In this document: positions 4,182-63,758 of the stretch, in pieces
Position numbering within the stretch: the first letter of the stretch is position 1
How the letters are laid out: every line of letters starts with the position of its first letter
Assembly (NCBI GenBank): GCA_051294375.1
Contig: CM119265.1
Coordinates: 10,864,338-10,928,337 of the forward strand
Length of the DNA: 64,000 bases
Direction of reading: 5' to 3'
From: Paraspadella gotoi
Taxonomy: Eukaryota > Animalia > Chaetognatha
Program-made: the position numbers and the translations under genes
Notes under the pieces: generated by a model
What the model saw: the letters and a program-made list of their open reading frames with translations, nothing else
The model's database searches: none
What the model was told of the DNA's origin: nothing

Positions 4182-5990
4182 TCACCCCTCCTCGGACTCG
4201 GAGCGCAGATTCTGTCTGCTCGTGATTTGTCGCCGAAGCGCGTTTCCCATCGAAGCGGGAAAAAGAGGGACGGCGCCGGCGATGTGGGCGGGGTGTTGGG
4301 GGTGGTGGTGCTGAGTGGTTTGGAGGGCAGCGGCGGCTGATCGGAGGACGACAACGGGCGGATGGGCGTTGCGCGGCGTCGGCGGCGGAAGCGAATCCGG
4401 AGGACAGAGGCGACCGTTGTGTTTGGTAAGAAGAAGACCCGCCACCCAACGGAAATAAACGTCAGCATCGGGGAAGATGAGGCTGCGTCCGATGAAGGGG
4501 GTGTCCTTGGAGATGACGAGCGGGTCGCCGCTGGAATTGAGTGGAGAATGGGAAGGGAGACAATAGGTCGCGGTTTGGAAAGAAGACAACGATGACTAAA
4601 CAAAAGACGTTCGGATCTTCCAAAAAGTCACCTGCTGACGAAAGTTATTCCCAAAGGCGGTCCGGTCGCCCCCTTCTCCCGCTTCAACCCGCGAAGTCGA
4701 GGCTTTTCGACTCCGAGATAAACGTTGACGTCTTCGATTCGCCACCGGCCTGAGGAGTCACAACAATGTTGCCATTGAAAAGGAGTGATTCATTGTTTAA
4801 TTTCGTCAATCTTAACTCTCTCTCTCCGCTCACCCATTTCCTTTTTGTTCTTTCCAGCGTAAAAGAGGATCTGCGCCTGAAGAAACTCGACGGTCATTTT
4901 CTTCCACGCAGCCTTCTCGCTGACCTGTAGCTCTGACAGCAAGCAGCCGGACGGCAGCGTCTGCAGCAGAGCTCGGCTTTTCAAGTCCTGGGAAAACAAA
5001 GAAAAATATGATCACAATACATGATTAAATAAATAAATTTCATCTTTCGTAACGAGTAATGAAATTAACACTAATTTACTACTATATGTAAATGAGATTG
5101 ATGAAATAAATTTAATTTTATATATACTAAAAATCTTAAAAGCATAAGGATCGTCGCAATCGCATGAGAAAAATCTGGATTGACGACAAATTTTGATACT
5201 AAAAGAAATAAAATTTAAGAAAAGAAAATTAATTTATAAGCAGAAAGAAAAATTATATTTTATAAATTAAAGTTAGTTTCTGAAAAAAAAAGAAAAAAAA
5301 ATTTTTATTGTCAAAAAATAAATGAGCAGACGCAACCCCTGAAAAAAAAAACGAAATAAAAACCCGATGTTGCGATAGCAAAATGATAACACAAATGCGA
5401 TGCCTAATTTTACGAGTTCAATTCTATTTTAATTTTTTTTAAATAAAAACGCAAAAAGAAAAAATCTTAAAAGCATAAGGATCGTCGCAATCGTATAAAA
5501 AATATTTGGATTGACAACAAATTTTGATACTAAAGAAGAAAAAAAAAAAATATAAAAACAGTAAAATAATATGGTGGACTAAAATCCACCAACCGTTCAT
5601 CAGCGGCCATTGGTGCGGAGGCAAGTCATTCGCCTCCCAACCCAAAGGTCCGGGGTTCTAGCCGGTGGTCGTTTGGCAGTTAAGAGGGACGGGGCGCTTA
5701 ACCCGCCTGTAACATGGTGTTACAGCCTGATCCGAAGCTCAGGGACTGCTTATATTGAACGGTTCTGTCACTAACAAAATAACAATTATTACTGTCTCTT
5801 CAATAACTAATTTTCGAGTTTATTTTTAGCAAGTGCTAAGTCTGGATGGAGAAACATTATTGAAAGTACTTTTGTTTTACTTTTAGTTTGATCGAATGCG
5901 ACCTCTCTAAACCCTGTCAGCATTCCCAGACAAAAGACAAAGTAAAACTTAAATCAGACTGACAAAGTGAAGTAAAGACTAAAGTGAAGT

Positions 5991-18000: not shown

Positions 18001-21000
18001 GCCAAATGAGTAAGTTAATAGACAGAGCAAAAAAAGAAGAGAGAGAGAGAGAGCGAGAGAGAGAGTGACCAAAATCATCTTTAAGGGAGAAATGTGCCGA
18101 GCGGAACGTCTGTGCTCGACTGAAGAGGCTAAGAGAAAAGAAAAGGACTTTGCATTAAAAATGTTTACTGATAATGGGCATGATCAAAAGACGTACAAAA
18201 AAATTATGCAGGATTATGGACCAAATGAAAAAACAAAGAACAAAAACAAAAACCAGAATCAAAATCAGTTGAATATCCGCAGCAGCAAATTCGCGATTTA
18301 TTTGCCGTCCTTCCATTTCATAACGCGGAAAATATTGAAATGCGCCCTTATGCCACATTACCCTACATCCCTGGAATGACCCATCAGCTACAGCGGGCCT
18401 ACACGAGGTCAGGGGCCAATCTGTTCTCTAAGTGTGGTCAGACTCTTTCTAGCATCCTGTGTGCTAAAATCAAGTCAAAACCTCCTCCACTGAAAGGGAA
18501 GGGGGTCTATAAATTTTCTTGTTCTTGCTCTGACAAAGCAATCTACGTTGGAGAAACTCGAAGCTTTGACATTCGTGCGGAAGAACACCGGAAAGCCGCA
18601 GAAAGCAGTTCTTCAAATCTCTCGGGAATCTCACAGCATAGAAAAAACTGTTCAGCGCCATTCGATTGGAAACCTGAGATCCTGTTGCAACCCAGAATAA
18701 AAAATCCAAAAAGCCTAAAACATCATCTCAAGGTTGAAGAGGCTTTGTGGATAAGGCGCCGAGACTGCTGCCCAGGACGTGGACTTAATGACGATCTTGG
18801 ATCCTATGTGAAGACAGACGTTTGGAAACCTGTTCTTGATGACTTTAAAAACAAGGAGGGGCGTGGAGGGATTAATCCCTGATTTTGGTCACTCTCTCTC
18901 TCTCTCTCTCGCTCTCTCTCTCTTCTTTTTTTGCTCTTTCTATTAACTTACTCATTTGGCCCTGAAGATGATCTGTCCAATGGATCGAAATATTGGTCAT
19001 AAATAAAAATACTGTACCTGTACTCCCATGTGTAATCTCTATCTAATAATAGTTCTATTACAAAGTGTTAAAAAAGTGGAGAATTTGACCTGTTTTTCTA
19101 TTTTTGACACAGAAGACATTGAAATTTTTAATATATTTTTGATCTAACTTTTTATAAAGAATCAGAATCAGAATATTTAAAAAATTATTTTGAAAATTTA
19201 TGATTTTATAAGAATATTACTATAAATATATTGTAATTAATGATACTGTTCCCCAAACAATATAAGAAAAATATTTTTTGTAATCTTTAATCAAACTATC
19301 TCACGTCTAAATATCCTTGTTTGATCACTCAAATAAAATTTATGTTCCCCAGTGCTCCACTCTATTGAGGAGGCAAGTTGCAATGGTTGCATTTTCGTAT
19401 TCTTCTCTTTTATTCACTTTCCCTTTCACCTTCTTTTCCGAATTTTCGGCGGCGAACGTATAAGTCCTAGACGGAATAGTAATCTCGAAACTGTTGGCAT
19501 CTTCCCCACTGCAAAGAATAACCCGACTGAGCAATGAATAATGACAAAAATCAAAACCGTATGAATGCAACCTTTGATGCGGATCAGAAACGAGAACGAC
19601 ATCCTTGAGATCGACGGTCCCCTTCGGTGCCGTCGACTCCTCGTCGTCGAAGTATTTGAGGCTTCCGGCATCGAGGACGCAGAAACGACGAGCGAAGCGT
19701 CCGCGCGGACCGCCTTCTTTGAGCAGAAAGTCCTTGAGGGTGGTGTGGCCGATGCGCGATCGGGAGTGGGGATTCCGCCAGGAGACTGGAAAGGGTTTTA
19801 TTTGAGGGGGCTTTCTGGACAGATATCTTTTTAAAGATTAAAATTAAATGGACTCACCAGAATTCCTGCTGCCAGCGATGCCGTCCTCTTCGGTGCTGCT
19901 CTCCAAAGCGTTCGACGCCAAGAAAGGACTCGGACCAGCGTCATCGGCGTCGGCGCCGTGGAGGGAAAGGAGCGCCGCTTGCAGGACTTGTCCGGACCTG
20001 TAATTTAGCATGAACTATTTCATGAATCGACCTCGTATACGATAAAGAAATGAGGCTCTAACCTTCTCGCAAGTTCCATCAAAGAACGCCCACCGAAAAC
20101 ATGATCTCTTCTGGTAGAGACGTCGGCTCCGGTGGCGATAAGTCGCATCGTCGTCATCAGTTCCGGCGTCTGAACATTTTTCGCCAAGGCCCTGTCCAAC
20201 GCCTCTTGATCTCCCTTCATCGGGTACATATTGCAGAATTTGCGCATCTTGTATTTCATAATGACGTAGTTCTTTCGCTCCAACTTTGAAGAGTCGGCGT
20301 TTATCTTTTCTTGGTCCAGGTAATATTCCCACATGCGGTTCGCGTTTTCGTTTCCTGGCAACGAACGGAGTTAAAATATCAATCAATCTCCCCGTTTACT
20401 TCTCCCCCCACTCGGTCTTCCCACTCACCGACGGCGCGCGTTAGCTCTATCACGTCGTCGATCCAGACCCCCTGATCCATCTTGAGTGACCTGACTTTAG
20501 AGTAGGAGACCCCGAGTTCTCTGTGGGCGCCGGAACAGTCCTTGCAGACGACGAGGCCCCAGTTGACGACGGCCCATTCAGGGTCGGGTCGTCCGCAGTC
20601 GGCGCAGAATCGGTTGGAAGGATTCTCGCGGATCAGGGACCAAATTCTGAGAGCGGAGGGGAGTGTCCCGATAGAGTAAAAATCTTAAAAGCTTAAGGAT
20701 CGTCGCAATCGCATAAGAACAAGTTTGCGCAAACAATTAATTAATCGATTAATTAATTAATTAAATAATTAATAAATAAATTTATAATACAGCTTATCAT
20801 CATCGATGTCCTTAAAATAAAGATAAATGTGACTTATATTTTTTTCATTTAAACTCATTTCCACTGGCACAATTCCGTCAAAACTTTATATCTAGCTTCT
20901 TCACAAACTTTCCTTCCCGCTCAACAAAATTTCATCTCAATCTATTATGGTTAAAATAAGTAAAAAGAGTCAAGTAATGTGACTCATATTTTTTTCATTT

Positions 21001-22388
21001 AAACTCATTTCCACTCGTACCGAAACTTTATATCAAGCTTCGTCACACATTTTCCTACCCACACACAAAATTTTAACTCAATCTATCCATCAATTATGAT
21101 TAATTAGAGTATTTATTGGTTTAAAATAAGTAAAAAGATTTTAGTAAATGCGACTTATGTTTTTCCATTTAAACTCATATCCACTCACACGATTCCCGTC
21201 GAAACTTTATATCCAGCTTCATCACACATGTTCCTACCCATAACAAAAATTCATTCCGATCCAACCAGCAATCACGAGTTATTGGGGCTTTTTTGCTAAG
21301 GTGGGACGGATGGACGGTATTGATTAGTGAATAATTAATTGACTAATTGATTAATTAACTGATTAATTATTTGATTTATTAATACATCCTGCATATACAT
21401 TTAATATAAAAGGAAAAAAAATCATAATCAATTAGTGAAACAGGTTTTTTTTGTTTTTTTCCATTTAAACTCATTTCCACTCAAACGATTCCATCGAAAC
21501 TTGGTTTCCTGTTAAATCACACACTTTCCTACTCACATACAAAATTCCAGGTCAATCGCCCCATCCACTCATGAGCAATTGTGTTCAAATAGTGAATTAT
21601 ATTTTTTTTGTTTTTTCCATTTAAACTCATTTCCACTCAGCTCATCGCACACTTCCCTACCCACACACACAAAATTTCATTCAAATCCATCCATCCAATC
21701 ACGAGTAATTGTGTTTTTTGGCTAAGGTGGGACGGACAGACAGAGCGGAGGACGGACATCATTTTTTTTGGCAATAATTTATCATAATTCGATGTTCTGA
21801 CATGATATAGTTAGTGCCCGACAATATTGAGGGGGACGGACCGACGGACCGACAAAGTGAATTATAGAGTCGGGATTGATAACAAATTTTGATACTGAAA
21901 AACATCGATTTGGGAAACAGTGCTAATTTTATTTAGACCATGCATAAAATAAAATTAAAAAAAAAGAAAATTAAATTATAAACAGAAAGAAAAATTATAT
22001 TTTGCGCTTGTCAATTAAAAAAATAATAAAGTATTGAGGAAAATTAAAGTTACAGTTTCTGATAAAAAAAGTTTTTTTTTGTCATTGTCAATTTTTATTG
22101 TCAAATAAACTTATCAGCAGACGCAGCCCCTTAGAAAAAAAATTTGAAAAAAGAAAATTAATTTATAAACAGAAAGAAAAATTCTATTTTGCGATTGTCA
22201 ATTAAAAAAAATAATAAAGTACCGAAAAAAATTAAAGTTACAATTTTTGAAAAAAAAAAAACTTTTTCATTGTCAAAAAAAAAAAATAAATAAAAACCCG
22301 ATGTTGCGATAGCAAAATGATAATATGCACGAATGCGATGCCTAATTTTACGAGTTCAATCCTAATTCAATTTTTTTTAAATAAAAAC

Positions 22389-40655: not shown

Positions 40656-43600
40656 TCACTCGGTGGCGCTCTCCCCATCGACGAGGGTCCCGTTAACAGA
40701 GTCAATCACTTCCTCTGTTTTGTTATTTTCTCCGACTTTTTCCTTCTCTTCTTTTTTATCTTCGTCCTTTTCAATTTGTCCGTTCGCCTCTTCACCCTTC
40801 GCCTTCTTTTTCCAAAATTGATCTTTAATCTTCGTGAGGATTTTCTTCATCGTCCCGTCGGATTCTTCGTCGAGAGCGACGCGGACGAAGCTTCGAGTCG
40901 CCTGGGCCAACGGAAGGGATCGATTAATTCTATAAAGTGAAGGGAGCCTTAATCGACCATAGCCAGTAGGGTGGAGTGATGAAAAGATTGAGCGATGGAA
41001 CAATGTTTTTTTGCTGCCTTTGTATGTAATAAAAAATAATTAAGCTCTTTATCAAAAAAAAATTGCATAACAGTAACATTAATTGAATTTTTTTATAGTA
41101 ATATCCTTATAAAATCATAAAATTTCAAAATCATATTTTTTTAATTTTAAATTCGCCGGAAAAAACTGAAAAACTTTTTTAAAATATGTTACATAATATT
41201 TTTATAGCTATATATATAGATGCAAAAAATGACCAAAACGTTTCATCATATAATAGTTTCGACTAAAAAGAGTAAAAAAGTAAAAAAAAATTGACTTTTT
41301 TCCTATTTTTGACGCGGAAGACATTGAAACTTTTAATAACATATTTTATATTTATGATCTAACTTTTTATGTAGAATCAGAATCTTTAATAAACATTTTT
41401 TTAACAATTTTTTTGAAAATTTATGATTTAATAAGGATATTACTAGGGATATTACTAGATATTACTAGTCTGGTGATTTTTTATTTTTATTTAAAAAAAA
41501 TTTTTTCACATGCTGTCATATAGCAGACATCGTTAGCTTTCATATGATACCTATAATGATGCATTAAAATTATTTTATGATAGCAATATGACATAAGAAA
41601 AAAAATTGTGATAATTTTTTTCTGCCAGGCCTCGTAGACACAGCTAAATCTTAAAATTTAAAAATCTGAAAATACAGTCTTTTAGCCCTATGTCAGTAGT
41701 TTTTAAATCAGGGGGAACAAAGTTTGAACTCCTAAATTATCATATTTAAATCATATGTTTTTTAAGGTTCCTACATGAATTTTTTAAATTTTTTTGTTTT
41801 CAAATAAATGATAATCATTATGTGTTTAATTTAATTTCAAAAGTTGTTATACTTTTGACTAAGATTCCGATCAAGATTTTTAAAAAAATCCTTTGAAACA
41901 TTTTAAAAAAATTATATGGAAAAGATGCCCCATAATTATGGATTTAATATGATACTATGGTGGACTAAAATCCACCAACCGTTCATCAGCGGCCATTGGT
42001 GCCGGAGGCAAGTTATTCGCCTCCCAACCCAAAGGTCCGGGGTTCTAGCCCGGTGGCCGCCTAGCAGTTAAGAGGGACGGGGCGCTTAACCCGCCTGTAA
42101 CATGGTGTTACAGCCTGATCCGAAGCTCAGGGACTGCTTATATTGAACGGTTCTGTCATTAACACTTATCAATAATTACTGTCTCTTCAATACCAGTCTC
42201 ATCGTTCTATCATTTTTGGTTCAAAAGATATCAAAGAAAATCAATTTTTTATTACCAATTTATGGTTCCGTATGGAACCGGGATTCTTCATGGTTCGTCC
42301 CCACCAACAAGTGAGCATCTGCTCTGCAAACGCGACATCTCCCGAGAGAAAAACGAAGAGGAATCCTCCTCTTCCCCGCCTTCTCTTCCCCCTCCTGTAC
42401 GCTACCTCAGTACGCCGTCACGAGACAGAATCACTCATAACCAAGCAAACCAAGAGGGGGGAATCCCGCGAAGACTTCCGGTGAAGCGCCACGCCCACTT
42501 GACCGGACGTCGTGGGGATGAGAAACCGCAAAAAACCAGTCCATGGACGAAAACCGGGTCTGGAGAAACTGACGGCCGGACGAGGCAACGGCCGAAAGAG
42601 CTGTCAGGCGTCCCTGGAGCCTCGCCCCTATGCTTGAGAGGCGGCAAAGACTTGCAAGGCCAGTAGGGACGGCGAGCAGGAATACGCGGACTGCCACGCC
42701 CACGCTTGCGGCTAGCAGAACAGGCGCAATTGTGTGGTGCCCCGGAGCGGAGAAGCGAAGAATGGAATGCTTGAGTGATGTCTGAGTGATGTCTGAGTGA
42801 TGTCCAAAAAGGAATGCCGTGGAGGGCGGAGAACTGGACAGAACTGTCTGAGATCCGAAGGGGCAGAGTCGACAACTAAGCGCCAAGACTCGAAAGGGCC
42901 AAACCAAAAATCGCCGCCAAACCCGACGAGGCGTCTCCAAGGGGCTTGGCAAGATCGTCATGGTGGCCTGCGTCCACTGCACCGGGCCCCTCCGAGCGAA
43001 GGGCCTGTGGCGAATTCACAGGCCTCAACTATGAGGCGAAGAGCGTCAGCGACAGAAAGGACAGCATGAGCGGATGCTCCGGCGTCTCTCATGATGCGCT
43101 CAAAAGCCTTGAAAGTGCGCGTCGTCTTGGAGTCCTTCCGAACGGCGTCGAACTGAGCGGCAAGGCAACTCTTGAGCAGGAGGACGAAATTCCGCCGGCG
43201 AAGAGACATCTGACCAGCGCCTGAAACGCGTGTTGGCGGAAAACACGTCCCACAACGGTAAAAGAACGTCATCCTGGCCAACTCTGCGCAAGTCCCTCCA
43301 CTGCTGCAAAACCCACTCCGAAGGCTGCACAGAAGCACGACGAGACAGGAAGTTGTCAAACCCCTCAACAGACTCTTCAGAGGAGGAACCCTTCTCTGAT
43401 CCGGAAACGGAGGCATCATTGTCGACTCGCGCAGGTGGGGCTCGAGGGAGGTAGGCGTGACACTCACCCTCGGAGCGTGAAGGCCGATCCGCCGCCGAAG
43501 AGGCCGCCAAAGAAAGCAAAGATTCCAAGTCGCTGGCATACAAACGAAGACCGACGAAGAACAGCGAATGGCAAACGGGGGCGTCCAAGAACCATGAAGA

Positions 43601-46600: not shown

Positions 46601-48368
46601 CGCGATCGGCGTTGTTATGGACGACGACGGCGACGCCGCCGCGATGCTGCCCCGTGCCGATCACGTGGCGAGAGGCGTGGAGATCGGGAGTCTGTGAGAA
46701 GGGAAGTAAAATTAGTTATAACAAATTCCTTTACAGATTTACTCAACGATTTTCGTGCCGGAAACATATTCACCCCGATGGACGACACCGACTCCTTGGC
46801 CGACGCGGGTTTGGCTTTAGCCGACGATTTAGTCGTCTTGCAGGCGACGTTGAGCACGGCTTTGGACCCTTTGTCGTCGCCGACAAAATCGCGGAGATCG
46901 TAGACGAGAATCTCCCGCTTAGCGCCGCCACGAGTCACGAATCGCGTAGAGGACGGCGGAGGCGTGACTTGCATCGATCGCTTGGCTCCGTCTGAGTGTT
47001 GATGCGGTAATGGAAGATACAGAAATAAAAGAAAAAGCTTGTCGATCACTTTGGCCGAGACTTACGCAGGTTTTTAGTTCCGTTGGACGTGACCTCGACC
47101 ATAACACTGCTCGTTTTAGCGAGAGGACAGCGAGATGTGAGAAGCTTGCCGAAGAGCCGCTTCATGGACCAATCGTGTAGAAAGCCTGTAATAAAGTCAA
47201 AAATATATCATAGATATTAAATATGCCCGATTGTAAACGAAGAATGAACCAACCAATCACATTCTTATCTTACAACGTTACCACTTAGCCACTCACTTTG
47301 TACGAAAGGATCGTAGACGACTGATAGCGACTGGGTCAACTCGAGACTGGACTCGGCGCATCCTTCATCCCGACAAACGGGGCGGAGATGGATCGATAGT
47401 GAGTGAAATGCGGAATCGAAGAGGCGTTTGGCGTCGTTGAGAAGAGTCGCGAGGCCGGCTTTGGATTCGCACGGAAGGAGCTTCTTCCAAGGAGTCAGGT
47501 TTTCTTGGTGGAGAAAGAAATCATCGGTTGAGATTCGAACTCATCCCGCGAGACTCGACCGTGTGGCTTACCCGTGCAAACGACTTCCCTCGGCAGCGCC
47601 CCGTATCTGACGAAAGTAGAGTTCAACCCTTCGCCCTCGAAAACTGCACCCGTTGGTCGGAAGGAGAGAACGGGGCTGACCGTCGCCGTCTTGTCAAGAA
47701 AGTTGAGGCTGGAGCAGCTGAGGCCGGAGAGAGCGTTGACCAGCCGCTTCCAGGTTTCGTCGACGGCGGCGGCGCCCAGGGAAGGATGAAACCACGCCCA
47801 TAGCTCGACGCCCGGCGGCGCCGGCGAAAGAGGGTAGCCCCAGTCCCGCGTTTTCCACAGGCCCATAGTGAGGGTCAGGTGAAGCTCCTGGTTAAGGAAC
47901 GGGTGAGTTTAACTTCTTTTTATGGGACAATGATTTAGGGCGTTATCCAGTCCCCTCCACGACTTTCACCTGAACTTTGTGATGAGCGACGATTTCTCCC
48001 AGAGCCTTCGGAAACAGATGATAGTGTTTGAAGTAAGAGTTATCGTACTCGCCCTGATATGAGAAAGGGTAAGGTTCAAACTGGGTCCGAGAAAAAGCAT
48101 CATTTGCGCCCTTACTTTGACTCCGTGAACCGGAACGTGCCAAGCGGTTGTAAATTGAAAGTGGGCGTGGAGATGGCCGGAGGGTAGCGGACGGAGCAGG
48201 AGCTCCTCGTGGAAGTCATCGTCACCGAACACGAGACCTTAGAGGTCAAGGGCAAATTCAATGTGAACTAACCGGACTAAATCGAGGTTTAATTGACGTT
48301 ATTTACCCACCTGTCAAAAGAAGGTAAGCGACGAGAACGAAAAGTGGCCAAGCCGAAACTTTCTCCAT
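40656..48368 (-). CDS. PIGT: GPI transamidase component PIG-T, multi-exon; the last intron (~40902-45937) is packed with TEs
   Basis: Signal peptide MEKVSAWPLFVLVAYLLLT; DDFHEELLLRPLPSGHLHAHFQFTT; HYHLFPKALGE; APPGVELWAWF; LVNALSGLSCSSLNF; YGALPREVVCT|ENLTPWKKLLPC; FLKWTAYPPDANHGFYV; MPTPDFSMPYNVICLVSTAVAIAFG. Confidence 0.95.
41956..42189 (+). mobile_element. Solo LTR-like repeat (family 2) with tRNA-Gly-like head and twister fold
   Basis: TATGG...TTCA with 4-bp TSD ATAC. tRNA-like segment 41989-42060 has a GCGGCCA/TGGCCGC acceptor stem, A box TGGTGCCGGAGG and B box GGTTCTAGCC. Confidence 0.75.
42063..42138 (+). ncRNA. Type-P5 twister ribozyme candidate
   Basis: Same core as 5676-5749; P5 is AGCAGUU/GACUGCU; predicted cleavage between U42087 and A42088. 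Confidence 0.75.
42257..44766. mobile_element. Non-autonomous DIRS-like (tyrosine-recombinase class) retroelement with ITRs and an internal complementary region
   Basis: ITRs at ~42302-42435 and 44610-44743 with unique outer ends. 43746-43833 is the reverse complement of the left end followed by the reverse complement of the right end, joined at AATT. Both termini end in AATT. No RT or recombinase motifs seen. Confidence 0.85.
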
Positions 48369-49213: not shown

Positions 49214-52200
49214 TCATGTCATGGTGCCGAAAACGGGGTTATGTCTGCAAATACTCGCTCCGTATTCGTCGTAGTCGGCTTTAGTATGGCAAACCTGGTA
49301 TGGGAAAATTAATAAATAATCACGGCCGTTGTTTAAAGAGATCAAAGAATATCAAAATATAAAATATCAGAAACACCATTCAAATTACTTGGTAAAACTC
49401 GGGAGTAGACGCCAACATAGAGCCTCCGAACCAGACGGCGTAGCGCTGCATCTGATGGGTGATGACCTGCACATCGATGGGTTTCGGTTTGATGCGACCT
49501 TCGCTCAAATCCTCGTGGATCTTCAATCGGGCATCCACGGTCCTCTTGATGTCTCGCTGTAACTTCCGCCCGAAATCGCGGAACATAGTTGAGCCGCCTG
49601 AAAAAAGAGGGTCGGGTATTAGCCGAGAGGAACTCCTAAACAAGTCAACAGTAAACGCTCTTCACTCCTCCCCTCCAACCACACACCCGAGAGGACGATG
49701 TTCTTATAAAGCGGGCGCCGGACGTCGATGGGGCAATTCTGAATGACGTCGTCGACGATCTCAGAGATTGGAGTCGTGAAGTCGCCGTTGCTGAACTCGG
49801 GATGGAAGAAGATCTCCGGACCCAGGAAACGCTCGTAGCCGACGTCGACGGAGAAAGGCTGTTTCGTGATGGAGTTCAAAGCATCGTACCTGAAAACGCG
49901 AGCGTAGCGGGTTAAGTTAACTTGTAAGAGAAAGCAAAATATCAAACTAAAGATTTTGTACTTTTTAATCCACTTGGCCGGATCTGTGTCGTATTTGTTA
50001 AACTCCTTTACCATGTCGGGGCAGACGTAACAGAATCGTTCCTTGATCGCCTTCGCCGTCTCCAGGGATTGCTCCGGTGGGATCCCCACCTTTCACAACA
50101 AACCAAATTTCCGCAATTAACCAACACGGATGAAGCAACTATAAGGAAGTCTTTCCTCTATAGGGTACCTATGCTTATGACTTTACTTCCCTTAAGCTTG
50201 CTATATCAGGGTTGGCATTAAAAAACCCACCCAAAAAAAACCAAAACAAGTTTGAGCAAACAATGTCGGATCTGCCTACGAAAATTAATAAATTAATTAA
50301 TCTATTAATTAATTAATTAATTTTAGTATTCAATAATTAATTATAAATTTATATACAGCTTATCATCATCGATGTCCTTAAAATAAAGTAAATGTGACTT
50401 ATATTTTTTCCATTCAAACTCATTTCCACTGGCACAATTCCGTCAAAACTTTATATCTAGCTTCTTCACAAACTTTCCTTCCCGCTCACAAAATTTCATC
50501 TCAATCTATTATGGGTTAAAATAAGCAAAAAGAGTCAAGTAAATGTGACTCATATTTTTTTCATTTAAACTCATTTCCACTCGTACCGAAACTTTATATC
50601 AATCTTCGTCACACATTTTCCTACCCACACACAAAATTTGAACTCAATCTATCCATCCAATTATGATTAATTAGAGTATATTTATTGGTTAAAATAAGTA
50701 AAAAGATTTTAGTAAATGCAACTTATGTTTTTTACATTTAAACTCATATCCACTCACACGATTCCGTCGAAACTTTTATCCAGCTTCATCATACATGTTC
50801 CTACCCATACACAAAATTTCATTCCGATCCAACCAGCCAATCACGAGTTATTGGGGCTTTTTGCTAAGGTGGGACGGATGGACGGATTGATTGACTGATT
50901 AATTATTGATTAATTAATTGACTAATTGATTAATTAACTGATTAATTATTTGATTTATTAATACATCCTGCATATACGTTTAATATATAAGGAAAAAAAA
51001 TCATAATCAATTAGTGAAACAGGTTTTTTGTTTTTTCCATTTAAACTCATTTCCACTCAAACGATTCCATCGAAACTTGGTTTCCTGTTCAATCACACAC
51101 TTTCCTACTCACATACAAAATTCCAGGTCAATCGCCCCATCCACTCATGAGCAATTGGTGTTCAAATAGTGAATTATATTTTGTTTTTTCCATTTAAACT
51201 CATTTCCACTTGGACGATTCCATCGAAACTTTATAACCAGCTCAATCACACACTTCCCTACCCACACACAAAATTTCATTCAAATCCATCCATCCAATCA
51301 CAAGTAATTTTTTGTGTATGTTTTTTGCTAAGGTGGGACGAATGGACGGACATCATTTTTTTTGCATAATTTATCATAATTCGATGATCTGACATGATAT
51401 AAGTTAGTGCCCGACAATATTGAGGGGGCGGACCGACGGACCGACAAAGTGAATTATAGAGTCGGGATCTGCTGATAAGCAGATCCGACTAAAAACCCAG
51501 CTAAAAAAACCCAAAAAAACCCACTTTTTAGTGGGTTTTTTTGGGTTTTTTAAAATTACTTAATTTTTTAATATGAAACATTAAATTGTTGAAGCAAAAA
51601 TTTAAATTATATAAGATATGTAAAACATAGGTTTAGGGTAATTTTTTATCATTAAATTATATATTAAGCTTTGTAAAAATGATATGTTTAATATCAGTAT
51701 CACTTTCGTTGCTGGCTTCTGTACCATTTTCCTTATATTAAGTAATCCTAATCATGAATCGCAAATTATGTAAAGAGCGACAAAATAAAAATGATTGCTA
51801 TTCTCTCGTTATTATTTAACACAAGGTTAGGGTTCTTTTAAAGCTATTTATCAGAAAAAATTAAACTTCAATATAATTATATATTTGACTATTTGTCTGA
51901 AAAGGTATCCTAACCAGGAGTAAAGTAACGAGAATGCGGGAAAATAACACATTGACGTCAGGAAAAAATGTTAGCCTTATTAAACACCTTAATATTTTAT
52001 TAAATTAGCTCAAATATTTTATCCAAATATCAAAATTTTTTTTTAGCCCAAAAGACAAGTTAATTCGGCAAAAACATGTACTAAAGATGTACTTCAATTT
52101 TCAATGTATTAGTAATTTATATAAATGTTTATGATGCATATTTATATCAAATTATTTTGAGTATTTAATTACTATTTTCTAATAAAATTAAGTTTATACA

Positions 52201-54953
52201 CTTTTTATTCAGAAAATATAATATTTATATTTATTACATTTCTGTTTACCATAAAAAATATTAATTAATTAATACTATTATTAAATAATTAAATATATAA
52301 TCAGTATATTTTTATATATTTTTATCAGTAATCACTTAAGAAGTATAAATATTTTAAATTTGTATCTTAAAAAAAATTAATATGACAGTCTGCTACCTAT
52401 AATTTAAAAAAACCCAATAAAACCCAAAAAAACCAAAAAAACCCAGTAGGCTGGGTTTTTTTTAAAAAAACCAGGTTTTTGCCAACACAGAGCTATATGC
52501 TTCAAGCATGCGAGTATTCTACCACAGCAAGTTAGCTTCTCTTATTCAAGTAAGTTAATTGGTATGTTTATTGGGAATACTACTAGAGTTAAGTTTACTG
52601 TTATTTTAGGACCATTTAGCTCTCTTACACAACAACCGGCTTCGCACTCACCTCTCTCTCCCTGAGGAGCTGCTGGATGAAGTAAGTGATGTCTCTCCCC
52701 GCGATCGGAATGTGTTTGATACAGGATCCAATGACGTAACCCTCGGCGACAGGAATCACGTGCGTCACACCGTCTCCGCTGTCAATCACCGTACCCGTCA
52801 ACGTCCGTTCACCGGCCTATTATTTTAAATACATGGTGACAATTTTATAAGCGTCGGTAAAAAAACGCTGTCATTTGCAAACCATTGGTTATTTCATTCA
52901 TTTTAAAAATTAGTTAAGTAGAAAATATTAAAGTCATTTATATGTTCAAATTTTATATTGATCAGTAAAGATATGCCCTGACAATGAGTGAAAAAAGTTG
53001 GCTTTTAAAATCGGGTTATATTTTCGAACACACAGCTTTTAAATTCAAGTTTTCTGAAGAAATTTGAAATAAAATAACATTAATATTATTATCTTTTGAA
53101 AGTCCTTTCAAATCTGAAGAGAATGACGTACTTATGAATACTGTAATATAAAATTAACCGGCCCAGCTTTTAATATAATTTAATTAAGATACATACTCAA
53201 AAACGAGACATCTTTTTAAAAATCAATAGCTGGAGGGTAAATTTTAGATTTTTATTGAATTTTATCTTAAATCTTTTTTTTCAGGCTCTTTCATGATACT
53301 TATATAAATAATAATATTTTATGTTATCATCGCAGAGGAATCAAGACTCCAGAATCGAATCGGATCAACGGATCGGATCAACGGATCGGATCGGAAATAA
53401 ATGGAACATTCTCATTGGTTGAAAGATAAATGGCACCGGCCAATGAACAAATGGTCGGGAAATTTTACCCTTACCTCCGATCCGTTTGGGCTGTATAAAA
53501 GGGAACCGAATTCTGTATTGATTCACTCTGCCTTGAAATTGACACCGTCTTGTTTATCGTTTATTTTCGAAGAAATAAAATCCACTTTGGTTTCGCTCAG
53601 AAATCCTTGTCTACTTACTAAATTGAGGTGGCAGAGGTGGGATTCGAACCCACGCCTCCGAAGAGACTAATTATTATTATAATTATTATTATTATTATTA
53701 TAATTATTATTATTATTTAAACAGGTCATATATTTTTAAAAAGATTTAAAATTTTAGATAATTCACTTTTGGCTCTCTTAATTGAACCAAAGCTGGGCAG
53801 CTTAATTTTTATGTTAGAGCTTTCATAAGTATGTCATTCTCTAAATTTTTTTAAGGGCTTTCTGAGGATAGTAATATTGTTAATATCTTAATAAATACTT
53901 TGTTTAAAAAAGTACTAAAAATGAATTTAAAAACAGAGTTGGAAAATGAAACCCGATTTTAAAAGTCAACTTTTTCTACTCATTGTCAAGGCATATCTTA
54001 ACTGAAAAATAGAAAATTTGAACATATAAAGGACTCTAATATTTTTTACTCAATTAATTTTTAAAATCAATGAAATAACCAGTGGTTTGCAAATGACAGC
54101 GTTTTTTTACCGGCGCTTGTAAAATTGTCACCATGTACGTAAAAGCGAATATTATTTGCTTAATAAATTTATAATTTTCAGTCCCCCCCCCACCCCACAA
54201 CCTGTCGGGATGTCCAGGAGGCGGCCAAGGCGAGAACAGCCTGTACGGCGATATAGAGACCGGGCACGTTAAAGGTTTCAAACATGATCTCGGCAGTGTA
54301 CTCTCGGTTCTCGGGTGTGTTGAGCGGAGGCTCCGTGAGCAGAAAATAGTGATCTTCTGGTTCGGCGCGGAGATACTTGAAGACGGTCTGTTCCCAGAAC
54401 CTCTCCATCAGGTCCCAGTCGTCGACTATGCCGTGTCGGATCGGCCACTGAAAAGACGCGCAGGAAGGAAGAGGAGTTAATATTCCAACAGATTTGTTAA
54501 TTACAATCGTGTAGGCGAGTTCGAAACGAGACTGACTTTGACAGTGTAGTTGGGAGTCTCCAACGCCTCGTCCCCGATGTAGAAATCCAAATCGGAGACG
54601 CCAGTCGCCACCTTTCGGGAATATTTTTTTTTATTGAGGGCAGGCAATTGGCAATGATCATAAGAATAATTCGACATTTCCTGCGTGCTATCCCGTAATT
54701 AATTAATTAATTATCACTTATGCTTTAGTGAACTAGAATCAAAATTTTGACTTTTCCTCAATCAGTAATCTTATCTCCCCCCTTTCTTAAGAACGCTCCA
54801 CCCCAATCCCCCAACCTTAGCGCCGATTCTAGCGCTCTCTTTGACTGCGATGCAGGAGGGAATGATGTGCTGCGGTTCTGTGTTGCCCGCGTATCCGATC
54901 TTGGTGTAGCCCGTCCCGTTATCGATTACTACGGCCGGAAGTCGACCCGCCAT
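49214..54953 (-). CDS. ACTR3: Actin-related protein 3 (Arp2/3 complex), 8 exons
   Basis: [33 protein letters not shown]; [44 protein letters not shown]; [16 protein letters not shown]; [20 protein letters not shown]; [12 protein letters not shown]. Confidence 0.98.
50207..52490. mobile_element. hAT-like MITE with a nested Helentron-type element
   Basis: TIR cagggttggca / tgccaacacag; near 8-bp TSD (t/a)gctatat; subterminal aaaaaccc repeats. Confidence 0.7.
50245..51491 (-). mobile_element. HINE-like family A copy; partial copies at ~9820, 20718-21878 and 59075-59668
   Basis: aacaagtttgagcaaacaatgtcggatctgcc ... gtcgggatctgctgataagcagatccgact. Confidence 0.7.
52832..54135. mobile_element. 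TA-flanked MITE with long (~300-bp) inverted arms; another left end starts at ~63978
   Basis: TA|catggtgacaattttataagcgtcggtaaaaaaacgctgtcatttgcaaacca... is mirrored at 54083-54135|TA. Confidence 0.8.
53627..53668 (-). pseudogene. 3' half of tRNA-Leu (variable arm, T arm, acceptor strand); a fragment, not a complete gene
   Basis: Minus strand reads AGTCTCTTCGGAGGCGTGGGTTCGAATCCCACCTCTGCCACC; the 5' half is absent and (TTA)n follows on the plus strand. Confidence 0.8.
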
Positions 54954-56975: not shown

Positions 56976-59900
56976 TCATCTTGAAAAGTTGTAACAGTGT
57001 CTTCGGGGTTCTTCACATCCGGGGACGGCAGCTTCGAGATCGATTCTCGGATCGGGAACGCCGCACCCGAAAATGCGGACAATCTAAAAAAAAAAGTGAG
57101 TCGGTTAAGAAAAAAGGGTAAGTTAAAGTTACTGAGATCCTCACCCGTCGATGCATCCGAACGTCGACGGCGGCCTCGTGGACCGTCTCTCCGTCGCAGT
57201 TCCACACGGAATTCTTGACGGTGGACCGGAACTGAGCGCGACGCTTCGAGCAAGCGCCGCATCCCACCTCGGCGCAGGTGCCTACGACGGATCCGACGCC
57301 GCAGGAGGGCGCCGGCGTTTCTGCATTGTCGCTGGGAATGAGGTTGAGGTCGTCGCGAGTTCCGGCGTCATCACTGACGGGCGTCGGTGTAGGCGTCGTT
57401 GCAGGGGTGCTCTTTTTGAGAAAGAAATCAAATGGAGGGGATGATATTGAAATTAACTTGAAAACCCGATTCCAAACGGTTTTCTCTCGTCCTACTTCGC
57501 TTACCGTCCGTTTAGGACAAGCGCATGCGTCCAACAACCCGCCGGCGTCGATATTCTTGGGCCTAAACTTAAAGGCTTTAACGCGGAAGACTTTGACGAA
57601 GTGGAAGTCCAGTTGATTGACGTTGTGGCGCGCGCAGTTGATGAGGTGGCGAAGGTAAGTGAACCGCGAGCATTCCGACGCCAGCATCAAGTCCATACAT
57701 CCGTCTCCCAGATGACCGTATGGAGACAGGCCGTCCGGACAGAGGCCGCAACTGGGGAATTAAATGGGGAAGATTAAACTCGTATATATATATCAAGGGT
57801 AACAATCGCACATTTAAGTCATAAGAAACAAGGTTCCGCTTCGCCTAACCGGGCCGACATCATGATGCAGTTGACGCCGATGAATTTTCCTCGAACGCTG
57901 ACCCATTCGTTCGACGACCTCGAGGACGACCTCTTCGGTCCGAGCTGGAGCGTGTCCGGCCTCTTTGGCTCCAGCAGGTCGTCGTCTTTGCCGCCGCCTC
58001 GATTCGCGTTCGACGTCGTCGTCTTCGTCCCCAACGACGAGACGGACAACCGCGCCCCCGGGCGACGAAAGTCCGAATCAAAATTCAGCCGGATTCCGGT
58101 GACGCCGGCAATACCGGCGTCCTCGGGCGACAACAACGCCTCTCCGTCAGAAGGTGACGGAGTGAGGGCGATGGGGGCCTCGTCGTCGTGGTCTTCCTCG
58201 GCTACGCCGCCGCCACAGACTTCGCAGCCCGAGTAACAAACGACGCCGTCGCCCGGATGACTCTGGCTGTTGCCACTGGGCAGAAACGTGACTTCGCCCT
58301 CGTACGAGTCGAACGTTAACAATTTTTTGAATCCCGCCAAGTTGTATCGACCTGCGAGGAGGCGGGGATAGAGGATTAACTTTACTTTGTCTCTAACGAT
58401 ACGACGCTCAAGTTTTTTTTGACCAGAACACGTTCCAAGAAAACTACTGGACCAAATTTATTGAAATTTGGAATGAACGATCCCTATGTGAATACAAATA
58501 GAAATATCGAGGCGAATTTCAATAATTGACCCCTGAGCCGAGATATGGGCACTCTGGGGGGTCACCCATTGGGGCAAAAAATGGTCAAAAATTTTTGTTT
58601 TGAACAGTTGCACAGACGTTTACTCTTCCACAAAAATCTATTTATTACCTCAAAAATGTTAGATCACCTTAATTTTCATCTTCTAAACATCAGCTGTTCA
58701 ATTCAGATTTGGAATAATTTTGGAAAATTGGAAGTAAAACGATGAACCATGCATCTTCAAACAATGCTTAATTATTGAAAATTTATCAATTTTAGTTCTA
58801 AAATGTTTTTTTTACATGTTTTAGACTTCAATGCACCTGATGCTACTAAAAAATATAAGAAAAAAATTTTTAGCCTTTTTTGGCCCGACAGGGGTCCAGC
58901 CCCAGGACCCTGTATCTCTTGTCAATGGTTGAATATTAAAATTTGTCTCGATAATTCCATTTATATCGTCATTAGGACTGTATATGTAAAATTTCATAAA
59001 TTTCGATCAAGTACTTTGGTGGGAACAGATTCTGGTTACAAAAAAGGGGTCCCACGTTTTATAATATGAAGCCTTCTGTAATTAATAATTAATTTATTCA
59101 AGTTAATTAATTAATTAGGCAATTAATTAATTAATTTGATACGAAAGGTTTGTTTTTAGGTCTTTTCATCACTAACCACGACAAAAGCAATGACGACGAT
59201 GAGAATAATGCCAATAACGATTGACTTGATTGATTGATTGAATAATTAATTAATAGATAAATAAATTGATTGACTGAATAATTAATTAATAGATAAATAA
59301 ATTGAGCGATTGAATAATTAATTGATTGAAGAAGCATAATCAATTAGTGAAACAGGTTTTTTTTTTCCATTTAAACTCATTTCCACTCGGATGATTCCAT
59401 CGAAACTTCATATTCAGCTCAATCACACACTTTCCTACCCGGTATCCACACAAAAAAATTTCATTCCAATCCATAAATCCAATCACGAGTAATTAGTATT
59501 TTTTGCTAAGGTGGAACGGATGGACGGACAGACAGACAGACTTTATTTGCATAATTTATCATAATTCGATGTTCAGACATAATATAAGTGAATGCCCGAC
59601 AAGATTGAGGGGGCGGACCGACAAAGTGAATTATAGAGTCGGGATCTGCTGGTAAGCAGATCCGACTAAAAAAACTTTTGCGCGCACCTGGTCCCAAACA
59701 TCGGTATTTTTCGCTGTTGAGCAGGACGTCGCCATAGTAACCGTAGCCCATGAAGGTGAAGGAATAGCGGAGAAGTTGACGCCGATGGTGGACGGCGGCG
59801 ACATCGAGGGAGACCGTCTTGCCGAGCACGACTTGGATGGCGCACGTCTCGGGGTCGTTGTTGCCTGAGAAATTGAGGAACGAAAGAGGAAGGCCGATGG

Positions 59901-61478
59901 GGCATGGAGACAAAATAAAGCTCAATGTACCAACGTCAATATCGGAAACTCGATCGCAAAAGATTCGCCCGATAATGCATAGAAATTTATACCATATTAG
60001 TTGTGGTAATAACCTTTCTTTTTCGTTGTTATGAAAAATAAAATTCGTTGTGAACTAAAGCCATTTTGCCTCAATACCATTTTAGTTAAAATTGTACATT
60101 CAGTCATTCACTGTTTAGGATCTTCCCGGTCCACAACGTAACGCTAACTACCCATAACCTTAACTACCTCTTACCATAATGATAAAAGCGAATAAAAATA
60201 TAACCAACCGGTTCGGTTACGGTCAGTAAAAGTATGCCCATTTTTGCATCATTTTTAACATTTGTTATTATGTTAGGAAAAGAGAGCTTATTTATAATTA
60301 TAAAATTAATGGAAAGATTTATTATTTATAAAATGAATAGATTGTGGCGAATCCTAAATTCGCCTCCCGTATAGCTTGGTGAAACTCAGCTCGTCCCATT
60401 GGCTTGGACAGCTAAGTTCCCCTCACGGTCACGCTGGTTAAAGTGTGATGGTGTTGGCATAAACATGCCAGTGACATGGGGTGGTCACTGCAGGTCCAAA
60501 GCCCTGAGCCCCAGCTGTCGAGAGATGCCTCACACCCCAGGCATCACACATGTCCCTCCGTTGCCATAAGTGGTGAGCCCTACTATCGAACACGCAACGG
60601 CTGCGTACCGTCACTCACGTTGTCGCTTAAGGATATGCATCCTAGGCCTATGCCCTACTTCTCGCTCGCTCGCTCTCTATGGAAATCTACTCTGAAGACA
60701 GTCACTCTAGGCTTGGTCACCCCAGTGTACTGTCTTGGGGGGGGCATGTGTGGCGAATCCTAAATTCGCTTCCCGTATAGCTAGGTGTAACTCAGCTCGT
60801 CCCATTGGCTTGGACAGCAAAGTACTCGTTCATCAACCGTGAGTTCCGGGTTCAATCCCCTCGCGGTCACGCTGGTTAAAGTGTCATGGTGTCGGCATAA
60901 ACACGCCAGTGACATGGGGTGGTCACTGCAGGTGCAAAGCCCTGAGCGCAAGCTGTCGGGAGATGCCTCACACCACAGGCATCACACATGTTCCTCCGTT
61001 GCCATAAGATAATTTTTCTTTAACACGAAATTCCTTACCCAGAACGGAATAGGCCATGCAGTCTGTGGATCCACAGGGAATGATGCCGAGGGGAATGCGG
61101 AGGGCGCGGACGGCGGCGTCGGGGTCGTGGAGGTCGACCTTGGCGGCGAGGTTGACGCGACGGATGAGGGCATTGGCCATCTCGTTGAAGGTCCCGTCTC
61201 CGCCCACCGCCACCACGCCGTCGAAGGAATCGAGATCGAGTTTCTGAGGGAACAAAGATTGAAAGGATGAGGAACGGGTAAGGGAAGATCCGCGAAGATC
61301 CGGGTCAGGACTAACTCACCCCGACGACGTCGATGCCGTGGCCGGCGAATTGCGTCTCCACGACCGTGACGGCTATTCCAGCCAAATCGAAGATCGGTTC
61401 CACCTTGCGGTGAAATATTCTAGGGCCGCGTCCTTTGCCGCCGTAAGGGTTCAGCAGGACGAAAATGCGGCGTGGGCG
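56976..61478 (-). CDS. CERK: Ceramide kinase; 5' exons lie beyond this coordinate (gap or outside the window)
   Basis: RPRRIFVLLNPYGGKGRG; FDGVVAVGGDGTFNEM; IPLGIIPCGSTDCMAYS; MGYGYYGDVLLNSEKYRCLGP; RYNLAGFKK; C..CPDGLSPYGHLGDGCMDL; SVWNCDGE. Confidence 0.92.
60433..60515 (+). ncRNA. Type-P5 twister ribozyme candidate, intact core (TRIM 5' LTR)
   Basis: GCUGG..GUGU-GA-UGG-UGUUGGCA-UAA-ACAU-GC-CAGUGAC/GUCACUG-CAGG UCCAAAGC CCUG-A..CCAGC. P5, P2, P3, P4, T1 (UGG/CCA) and T2 (GC/GC) can all form. Confidence 0.8.
60871..60953 (+). ncRNA. Type-P5 twister ribozyme candidate, mutated copy (TRIM 3' LTR)
   Basis: Same fold as 60433-60515, but the conserved GA reads CA and the loop reads UGCAAAGC, which breaks T1. 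Confidence 0.6.
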
Positions 61479-62078: not shown

Positions 62079-62267
62079 TATGGTGGACTAAAATCCACCA
62101 ACCGTTCATCAGCGGCCATTGGTGCCGCAGGCAAGTCATTCGCCTCCCAACCCAAAGGTCCGGGTTTCTAGCCCGGTGGTAGCCTAGCAGTTAAGAGGGA
62201 TGGGGCGCTTAACCCGCCTGTAACATGGTGTTACAGCCTGATCTGAAGCTCAGGGACTGCTTATATT
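62079..62267 (+). mobile_element. 3'-truncated copy of the family-2 LTR-like repeat (twister fold at 62186-62261)
   Basis: Near-identical to 5570-5756; T1 has drifted to UGG/CUG (wobble pairs). Confidence 0.7.
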
Positions 62268-62813
62268 AGATGAGAATCTCGAATAAAAAAAATTTAACAT
62301 TTTTCTAATAGAGATTTCCGTTAAAATCTGACTACCCAAATTGCAAACGAGATTTCCAGAAATTCGGGTAAAAAACAGTTGTAAAAACATATGATTCCGA
62401 TAGCGTTATATCTTAAGAGCTAGCCAAATTCGTCTTATGGCATTTGATAAAGGATTTAATATCAAACAAGCCAGGGGAAATGCACTAGTCATCTCCGGAG
62501 AATTTTCAAACCTTGTTCATACTATAAAAATGAATGGGAAATTTTGCTTTTCGAAAATTGTAAACGGGGTTAGGGTATGTTAACATTATAAATATTACTT
62601 CGAATTATGAGATTTAGAAAGCCTCTTGTCTCAAGAGCTTGCCAAATTTTTCTTTTCATTATCGACCAAACTCTTCATAGTAAACCAACGTGGTAAAGTC
62701 CATTGGTCTGGTTTGACAACATGAAATTTTTATTTAATAAGATTATTTAATAAAAGGAAGCCATAATCATTGAGCACATACAAGTTACAATATTAGAATT
62801 ATTTTTGCTGAAA
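62268..62813. repeat. Dispersed repeat, inverted copy of ~1095-1700
   Basis: For example, 1481-1545 is the reverse complement of 62436-62500. Confidence 0.75.
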
Positions 62814-63758
62814 NNNNNNNNNNNNNNNNNNNNNNNNNNNNNNNNNNNNNNNNNNNNNNNNNNNNNNNNNNNNNNNNNNNNNNNNNNNNNNNNNNNNNNN
62901 NNNNNNNNNNNNNNNNNNNNNNNNNNNNNNNNNNNNNNNNNNNNNNNNNNNNNNNNNNNNNNNNNNNNNNNNNNNNNNNNNNNNNNNNNNNNNNNNNNNN
63001 NNNNNNNNNNNNNNNNNNNNNNNNNNNNNNNNNNNNNNNNNNNNNNNNNNNNNNNNNNNNNNNNNNNNNNNNNNNNNNNNNNNNNNNNNNNNNNNNNNNN
63101 NNNNNNNNNNNNNNNNNNNNNNNNNNNNNNNNNNNNNNNNNNNNNNNNNNNNNNNNNNNNNNNNNNNNNNNNNNNNNNNNNNNNNNNNNNNNNNNNNNNN
63201 NNNNNNNNNNNNNNNNNNNNNNNNNNNNNNNNNNNNNNNNNNNNNNNNNNNNNNNNNNNNNNNNNNNNNNNNNNNNNNNNNNNNNNNNNNNNNNNNNNNN
63301 NNNNNNNNNNNNNNNNNNNNNNNNNNNNNNNNNNNNNNNNNNNNNNNNNNNNNNNNNNNNNNNNNNNNNNNNNNNNNNNNNNNNNNNNNNNNNNNNNNNN
63401 NNNNNNNNNNNNNNNNNNNNNNNNNNNNNNNNNNNNNNNNNNNNNNNNNNNNNNNNNNNNNNNNNNNNNNNNNNNNNNNNNNNNNNNNNNNNNNNNNNNN
63501 NNNNNNNNNNNNNNNNNNNNNNNNNNNNNNNNNNNNNNNNNNNNNNNNNNNNNNNNNNNNNNNNNNNNNNNNNNNNNNNNNNNNNNNNNNNNNNNNNNNN
63601 NNNNNNNNNNNNNNNNNNNNNNNNNNNNNNNNNNNNNNNNNNNNNNNNNNNNNNNNNNNNNNNNNNNNNNNNNNNNNNNNNNNNNNNNNNNNNNNNNNNN
63701 NNNNNNNNNNNNNNNNNNNNNNNNNNNNNNNNNNNNNNNNNNNNNNNNNNNNNNNNNT
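62814..63758. other. Assembly gap (N run)
   Basis: Ns in the sequence. Confidence 1.

Follow-up and report, generated by a model that had tools for sequence, protein, structure and literature searches.

A two-LTR element next to a DAGK-domain exon

The window, a stretch of 64,000 nucleotides from the chaetognath Paraspadella gotoi, contains a multi-copy non-coding element of 664 bp at 60343-61006 (+ strand) that has the target-site duplication AGAT on both sides (60339..60342 and 61007..61010) and no long open reading frame. The element can be divided into a 5' LTR of 226 nt (60343..60568, +), a non-coding interior of 180 nt (60569..60748, +) and a 3' LTR of 258 nt (60749..61006, +). Both LTRs have the ends TG...TA, rather than TG...CA, and the 5' LTR begins with a terminal hairpin that has a CTAAA loop (60346..60364, +). 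A PBS-like sequence starting with TGG (TGGTGAGCCC; 60571..60588, +) starts 2 nt past the 5' LTR, and a G8 polypurine tract (60737..60744, +) ends 4 nt short of the 3' LTR. An earlier reading of this DNA, made from its letters (the sequence-only reading below), had described a 664-bp element with two LTRs, an AGAT duplication, a TGG primer-binding site and a G-tract, and all of these are found at 60343-61006.

The junctions of the 5' LTR are given by the loose ends of contigs. Contigs of run X1 exit the element at both predicted ends (60341-60343, 116 contigs; 60568-60569, 103 contigs) into unrelated, AT-rich flanks (agreement 0.41-0.45), and this independently confirms the LTR termini. Most family members diverge past about 60598, in the interior. 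The summed contig depth of 100,000-137,000 in the LTR versus 32-58 in the flanks, which is itself no copy number, suggests that LTR copies run into the thousands. Contigs from two studies match 60920-61100 without difference, which rules out assembly errors at the 3' junction and for two of the 3' LTR's three defects (see below).

A ceramide/sphingosine-kinase-like exon of the DAGK family (DAGK_cat domain; 61039..61246, - strand) precedes the intron that contains the element. The element is antisense to this DAGK-domain gene, and about 30 nt separate it from the GT donor. Run X9, which comes from another sample and which we guess to be RNA, gives a mere hint of expression: it covers this host exon at a depth of 67-81 and the intron flank at 0-2, and the LTR is present in it. 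An Arp3 exon reaches 173 bits with mammalian entries and 146 bits with fission-yeast ones, which, like the spliceosomal introns, is in keeping with an animal host; a homologue search gave a single match, at 70%.

Each LTR contains a tRNA-like head. In the 3' LTR, the A box (60806) and the B box (60849) of the tRNA-like segment (60806..60858, +) are 43 nt apart, which is a tRNA-like spacing. The 5' LTR contains an A-box-like motif (TRGCY plus YGG; 60400..60411, +), and its copy of the B box was removed by a 32-nt deletion, leaving the B box in the 3' LTR only, exactly as the sequence-only reading had it. These motifs fit the description of the Helenus boxes (A box TRGCY and YGG, B box GGTTC) by Kojima (2024, PMC10886601). 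ARAGORN and Rfam detect no tRNA in the element, and no cloverleaf is found, so the head is tRNA-like by its boxes and their spacing only. The proposed tRNA-derived Pol III head therefore stands as regards the Helenus-type A and B boxes with their 43-nt spacing, and not as regards a tRNA recognized by ARAGORN or Rfam. The 3' LTR is without a T4 terminator; we rejected this as evidence for Pol III, since 3,346 of 5,000 shuffles also contain no T4.

A twister-like fold behind the head, and its recurrence in a second family

Apart from a proper P1, all parts of a twister in the P5 permutation are present in the 5' LTR. The predicted fold occupies 60433..60515 (+) with its core intact and consists of P5 (60433-37/60511-15), P2 (60443-46/60463-66), the core GA (60447-48), pseudoknot T1 (60449-51/60496-98), the UAA of the cleavage strand (60460-62), pseudoknot T2 (60467-68/60501-02), P3 (60469-75/60484-90) and P4 (60491-94/60503-06), all on the + strand; the predicted cut is between U60460 and A60461. 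A strict descriptor of the P5 twister, which makes no demand on P1, P3 or P5, has a single match in 128 kb (the window, both strands), and this match is the 5' LTR. The layout is thus that of a twister core in the P5 circular permutation, as claimed. When one mismatch is allowed, about 20 further matches appear in the window on both strands.

The covariance-model check, on the other hand, largely failed. The Rfam twister-P1 model (RF03160) yields 24.5 and 20.3 bits, far short of its gathering score (67.2), and neither the twister-P5 (RF02684) and P3 models nor the hammerhead models match anything in the element. In the Rfam P5 model, P1 is an 8-bp helix and P3 is missing, while the LTR motif is the reverse, with a 7-bp P3 and a stunted P1, and this difference in make-up is the likely explanation of the poor Rfam scores. 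Reading the LTR motif as type P1, as in the Rfam alignment, was rejected because it requires insertions and yields no T1 pairing. Energy calculations give the fold little help. When pseudoknots are left out, the twister fold has an energy of -19.6 kcal/mol versus -24.3 kcal/mol for the minimum-energy fold, with a pair probability of 0.06 for P2; shuffled versions of the 91-nt twister region fold as well as the region itself (z -0.74); and an intramolecular P1 hairpin has at most 2 bp, with a pair probability of 0.05.

Among loci from pattern scans that score above or near the Rfam cut-offs, three natural twisters share the T1/L4 letters of the element: L047, of type P5 (45.6 bits, above the P5 cut-off), and L039 and L029, of type P1. 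Family-specific patterns give no metagenome loci and three viral loci, none of which has a model match. The twister core pattern gives 11 viral and 56 metagenome loci, of which 2 of 67 pass the structure filter, and these viral and metagenome loci have no likeness to the element beyond one 18-nt stretch. Two candidates were set aside: locus L040, one of the two that pass the filter and a chance look-alike with one mismatch in a bacterial coding region and no Rfam match, and an L4-like stretch at 46857-46868 of the window, which is apparently coding sequence and is matched by neither covariance model.

Besides the 32-nt deletion in the 5' LTR, 14 substitutions over 226 nt distinguish the two LTRs of this copy. 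The corresponding twister in the 3' LTR (60871..60953, +) is decayed: it fails the descriptor with a C at 60885 in place of the general-base G, a G at 60934 breaks T1 and an A at 60950 breaks P5. When natural type-P1 twisters were assayed on a large scale, replacing the general-base G by C reduced mean cleavage to 0.37, compared with 0.76, and a general-base defect combined with a pseudoknot defect was reportedly not tolerated (PMC11662667). The ribozyme is therefore not intact in both LTRs at 60343-61006, although it is intact in the majority of the family. The idea that transcription from the 5' LTR is followed by cleavage in both LTRs fails for this copy, which has no 5' B box and whose 3' ribozyme has lost its general base and a T1 pair. 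The cycle proposed below can apply to the family, and not to the 60343-61006 copy.

A covariance model that was built from the two LTR motifs of the element, using nested helices only, finds three more sites in the window at E of about 2e-6 (rough calibration), the next match having an E of 1.6. These sites belong to a second family (family B, the family of the 60343-61006 element being family A) and include two solo LTRs: one of 234 nt at 41956..42189 (+; duplication ATAC, ends TA...CA, tRNA-like head, twister fold 42064-42137) and one of 233 nt at 5570..5802 (+; duplication ATAA, twister fold 5676-5749). The third is a 3'-truncated LTR at 62079..62267 (+; twister fold 62187-62260). In each family B copy a 5' hairpin is followed by a tRNA-like segment, and this in turn by the twister fold; the hairpin is the same as that of family A with two-sided changes. 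There is no blastn match of more than 10 nt between the two families, and no Rfam twister model matches family B. A second covariance model reveals no third family in the window.

The two families conserve GA, UAA, GC and U-x-x-x-A-A-G-C. Of the 25 twister pairs compared between them, 15 are identical, 8 show two-sided changes and 2 are broken in one family. One pair of T1, for instance, is U-A in one family and C-G in the other, and T1 is absent from the search model. In the model-fitted alignment with both pseudoknots included, 97.6% of the cells pair, versus 26-39% in slid controls, for a comparison that draws on two lineages, one of them (family B) found with the nested-helix model. The covariation score is reached by none of 500 shuffles, and the count of seven changed pairs by 87 of 500. 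MAFFT alignments of the twisters were out of register and were left out of the pair counts. A relaxed descriptor, written after family B was seen, finds the 5' LTR and the three family B copies only, and no site in 100 block-shuffled windows. The P2 of family B is weak (two pairs plus A.C), and its strands may slip in register, in which case the core G would be buried.

Family variation, the P1 linker and a proposed retrozyme cycle

Three runs were aligned to 60420-60550, and 40 of the 41 variants at 1% or more are listed. All 40 are in 60450-60521, and the outer 30 nt on each side of the aligned region contain no listed variant. The structure is kept by 10 of 10 variants that reach at least 10% in any run. 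These common variants alter the L3 loop, exchange G.U with G-C or A-U with G.U in P2 and P4, or change P1 in ways that preserve its palindrome. Among variants at 4-10%, 4 of 8 break the structure (5 of 8 if position 60456 is judged against the common type, whose palindrome is disrupted by a 6% variant there). Overall, 16 of the 40 listed variants are structure-breaking, most of them at 2% or less and four at 6-9% in run X9. In the same run a structure-keeping variant is enriched, at 52% versus 2%; the contigs are of another sample, which makes this a hint only.

In the two DNA runs, the core and pseudoknot positions from 60450 on vary by at most 1.7%. The general-base G is present in 36,318 of 37,222 depth units, and the T1 position that is broken in the 3' LTR has no variant of at least 1% among those listed; the breaking changes of the 3' LTR are rare in the family. 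The probability that all seven subfamily sites are structure-compatible is about 0.014 if they are independent, a value that overstates the support because the common variants are linked; the support is moderate. The family is young, and conservation of the core is little above that of free positions, with variants at about 1% everywhere. Taken with the covariation between families A and B, the common variants support selection, at the family level, on the predicted P5-permuted twister fold.

The P1 position of this fold is taken by a self-complementary 8-nt linker (60452..60459, +), predicted to form a dimer helix; self-complementary 8-mers make up 2% of all 8-mers. In family A, the P1 duplex is computed at -9.5 kcal/mol for the common type and -4.8 kcal/mol for the 60343-60568 LTR. 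A linked two-site variant strengthens the duplex to -10.9 kcal/mol and worsens the monomer hairpin from +2.9 to +5.0 kcal/mol. In family B, P1 is a self-complementary 6-mer (-8.3 kcal/mol) that is too short for a hairpin. These models suggest that the two ribozymes of an LTR pair likely act as a dimer through their self-complementary P1. A similar arrangement is described for amphibian hammerheads, in which a weak, palindrome-capped helix III cleaves as a dimer (PMC7229834). In type-P1 twisters, however, P1 is reported to be dispensable (PMC11662667), and thus a dimer may be unnecessary, although P1 is a terminal helix in those ribozymes and a linker in the LTR twister.

Our preferred reading, to which we give a probability of roughly 0.6, is that intact copies function as retrozymes. 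Transcription by Pol III would begin in the head of the 5' LTR and continue across the 3' LTR, and the twisters in both LTRs would cut, likely via paired P1 linkers, freeing a unit-length RNA. The predicted unit between the two cut sites (60461..60898, +) is computed at 438 nt, in agreement with the roughly 440 nt claimed from the sequence. A host ligase would close this unit into a circle, and a Gypsy-type helper would reverse-transcribe the circle and integrate the product. The element lacks a T4 terminator, and the 3' cut would also fix where its RNA ends. With both LTRs cut at one and the same position, the freed RNA would carry no terminal repeat on which strand transfer could rely; a circle is then the simplest template from which two LTRs can be rebuilt, as has been proposed for plant retrozymes. 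Every step from Pol III transcription through cleavage and circularisation to the helper is inferred, as is the geometry of the dimer; the helper is proposed because the 4-bp duplication and the type of PBS are as in animal Helenus. Precedents exist for the later steps. Plant retrozymes are described as losing R and then circularising (PMC4918200), and RtcB efficiently ligates ends of this kind, tandem twisters giving circles in mammalian cells (PMC7229834).

Four other explanations can be considered. In the first, which we regard as unlikely, the twister is active and merely trims linear RNA, freeing it from upstream or read-through transcripts, or cuts so slowly that ordinary LTR copying proceeds, and no circle is formed. 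The contig data, which carry neither start nor strand, reveal no circle, and the predicted circle is moderately structured (63% paired, z -2.3), both of which are compatible with linear trimming. However, LTRs are identical at insertion, and an active ribozyme would be expected to cut both of them and remove R; a self-complementary P1 in two families is also better suited to coupled cutting in two LTRs.

A second explanation, which we consider improbable, is that the fold is derived from a twister and is non-catalytic, being kept as a signal for dimerisation, packaging or reverse transcriptase. The low Rfam scores, the stunted P1, the weak P2 of family B and the competing folds would all be expected from such a relic. 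A packaging dimer signal is expected to look like a palindrome, and the P1 palindrome resembles one. A pure packaging signal, on the other hand, would not need the catalytic residues (A1, A2 and the general-base G) or the two pseudoknots, all of which are kept in two otherwise dissimilar families.

There is a slimmer prospect that a tRNA-headed, SINE-like element carrying a twister was inserted in an ancestral LTR and that the ribozyme is a neutral passenger. SINE insertion has been proposed as the origin of Helenus by Kojima (PMC10886601), SINE-like repeats of Schistosoma join a Pol III promoter to a hammerhead (PMC6765202), and the three breaking changes in the 3' LTR twister at 60871..60953 would be unsurprising in a passenger. 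Selection in the LTR lineages is nevertheless indicated by the 8 two-sided changes between families A and B together with the 10 of 10 compatible common variants. In addition, breaking changes are rare in the family, and the data suggest that subfamily-defining substitutions avoid the core and the pseudoknots. Finally, a chance resemblance to a twister, which the Rfam E-values (0.059 and 0.96) and the L040 look-alike might invite, is hardly credible given that the strict descriptor for the core alone is matched by 23 out of 20,000 dinucleotide-shuffled LTR sequences and that the fold recurs with covariation in family B, in the corresponding place and again following a tRNA-like head.

The retrozyme reading can be carried further, to a tentative proposal that we hold to be somewhat doubtful as a whole. 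Animal LTR retrozymes may be Pol III TRIMs in which the LTR twisters are obligate dimers through a palindromic P1, such that only full-length transcripts, and not those of solo LTRs, are cut and circularised, and in which the slot behind the B box can hold different ribozymes, a twister here and a type III hammerhead in the wasp Helenus-2.

Relation to Helenus elements, retrozymes and other twisters

If the retrozyme reading is true, LTR retrozymes are not confined to plants and hammerheads but also exist in an animal, with a twister as their ribozyme, and eukaryotic twisters have a second role beside the 5' trimming of LINEs. The family would also be a natural source of small circular RNA, akin to engineered tandem twisters. 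Should the reading with an interchangeable slot hold as well, LTRs of the 'promoter plus ribozyme' type would be a recurring, overlooked class and the present motif the first natural dimeric twister. The escape of the predicted dimer-dependent twister from the Rfam models suggests that such motifs are probably undercounted.

In the non-subscription literature covered, no paper on a twister in LTRs was found, although Repbase, Dfam or the supplements of PMC11662667 and of the bioRxiv preprint might list the motif. A cycle from LTR ribozyme to circle was found in that literature only for plant LTR elements with hammerheads. A 2026 preprint places LTR retrozymes primarily in plants, and insect elements with type III hammerheads are mentioned as unpublished work (PMC7761336).

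By its sequence, the element is a Helenus-type TRIM. It shares with Helenus (TRIMp3; PMC10886601) a non-coding body of less than 1 kb, two LTRs, A and B boxes, a PBS, a PPT, solo LTRs and the lack of a functional tRNA. The 4-bp target-site duplications (AGAT here, ATAA and ATAC in family B) are likewise as in animal Helenus. In the accessible parts of the Helenus paper no ribozyme is described, the word 'ribozyme' occurring once, in the reference list, and 'twister' never. A motif search of the accessible part of its supplement, whose line breaks can hide matches, gave no match to the element or to twister L4 motifs. In that supplement, Helenus-2_SyJa and Helenus-2_SyUm, from Synergus wasps, are like the present element in having an A box, a B box, a small ribozyme motif and a similar PBS; for Helenus-2_SyJa, 11 of the first 13 letters of the PBS agree with those of the element. 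By eye, the LTRs of both contain the core of a type III hammerhead directly behind the B box (GUC, stem I, CUGAUGA, stem II and GAAAC, with complementary loops 1 and 2), which suggests that a ribozyme recurs at this position of the LTR. The wasp motif differs in that it is a hammerhead and looks monomeric, whereas the element has a twister, and it goes unmentioned in the accessible text of PMC10886601. Two published Helenus consensus sequences thus appear to carry an unremarked hammerhead, and the published set is worth re-screening.

Among the known ribozymes, the closest is the type-P5 twister (RF02684; clan CL00120, together with twister-P1 RF03160), which has the same permutation and the same P2, GA, T1, UAA, T2 and P4/L4. 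Unlike RF02684, the LTR motif has a self-complementary linker of 6-8 nt as P1 in place of an 8-bp hairpin, contains a 7-bp P3 and scores below all Rfam twister thresholds. The twister T-variants of Perere-3 in Schistosoma (PMC8501958) are also found in an animal retrotransposon and tied to the formation of an RNA end, but Perere-3 is autonomous, belongs to the non-LTR elements and has a single 5' ribozyme. Animal non-LTR retrozymes (PMC7229834; bioRxiv 10.64898/2026.07.22.740005) are likewise non-coding and ribozyme-bearing, with a weak palindrome-capped helix that needs dimers and with circles made by RtcB. They differ from the element in being tandem repeats of type I hammerheads that are linked to Penelope and are described without LTR, PBS or PPT.

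Plant LTR retrozymes (Cervera et al. 2016, PMC4918200) resemble the element in being non-coding, with one ribozyme per LTR, a PBS, a PPT and a 4-bp duplication. In these retrozymes double cleavage removes R, and the circle has been proposed as the template for Ty3-gypsy enzymes (PMC4918200). Their ribozyme, however, is a type III hammerhead, their RNAs are 600-1000 nt long, their circles are shown, whereas that of the element is predicted, and the accessible text of PMC4918200 describes no tRNA-derived Pol III boxes in them. The element thus likely works like an LTR retrozyme, yet it falls outside both the hammerhead-based definition of that class and the Rfam thresholds for twisters.

Shared and variable parts of the LTR families

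In family A, that of the short LTR element at 60343-61006 whose LTRs carry a tRNA-like head and a P5-permuted twister fold, read depth over 60569-60626 remains as high as in the LTR across the PBS (primer-binding site) and over about 30 nt past it, and then falls about 100-fold; the LTR and PBS are thus common to many elements whose interiors differ. A structure-keeping set of variants at 60454 and 60458 (P1 linker) and 60492 (P4) accounts for 32-52% of the depth in X9, a sequencing run from another sample that we guess to be RNA, versus 1-3% in two DNA runs. This enrichment may mark an expressed subfamily or reflect a population difference.

A second LTR family, B, is represented by plus-strand solo LTRs at 5570-5802, 41956-42189 and 62079-62267, with 4-bp TSDs and TA...CA ends. 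Its LTRs have a tRNA-like head and, after it, a twister fold that covaries and whose P1 is a 6-nt palindrome; the Rfam models did not detect this fold. LTRs of both families start with a 6-7-bp hairpin (60346-60364 in A, 41959-41976 in B) that contains CTAAA in its loop and shows two-sided changes between the families, and is a candidate packaging or integration signal.

Other features of the window

Members of an AT-rich repeat family, about 1.2 kb in length (6221-7369, 20735-21876, 50243-51495 and 59106-59675), have a Helitron-like end: a short palindrome and then CTAA. Between 42257 and 44766, short units of 55-59 nt in tandem are enclosed by nested inverted repeats, one of 143 nt (97%) with its copies 2174 nt apart and others of 54 and 38 nt; the structure may be a composite DNA transposon or MITE. 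The window also includes an Arp3 (ACTR3) exon on the minus strand (54178-54480), which served solely in placing the host, and an assembly gap at about 62812-63755, and contains 944 Ns.

Ribozymes in viral and metagenome contigs and apparent ribozymes in wasp LTRs

Ribozymes are also clustered on viral and metagenome contigs. Tandem P5 twisters occur among one set (L009, L011, L047, L039, L029), in which L039 has a pistol alongside the twister and L029 a twister with a weak HDV-like match; a further set (L013, L025, L061, L063, L065) has repeats at a twister-like site identified by pattern match.

In the PMC10886601 supplement (Kojima 2024), the wasp Helenus-2_SyJa-LTR and Helenus-2_SyUm-LTR contain, after the B box, what looks by eye like a type III hammerhead whose 12-nt loops 1 and 2 are complementary; the article makes no mention of a hammerhead in either LTR. 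Helenus-2_SyJa and Helenus-2_SyUm are candidate insect LTR retrozymes.
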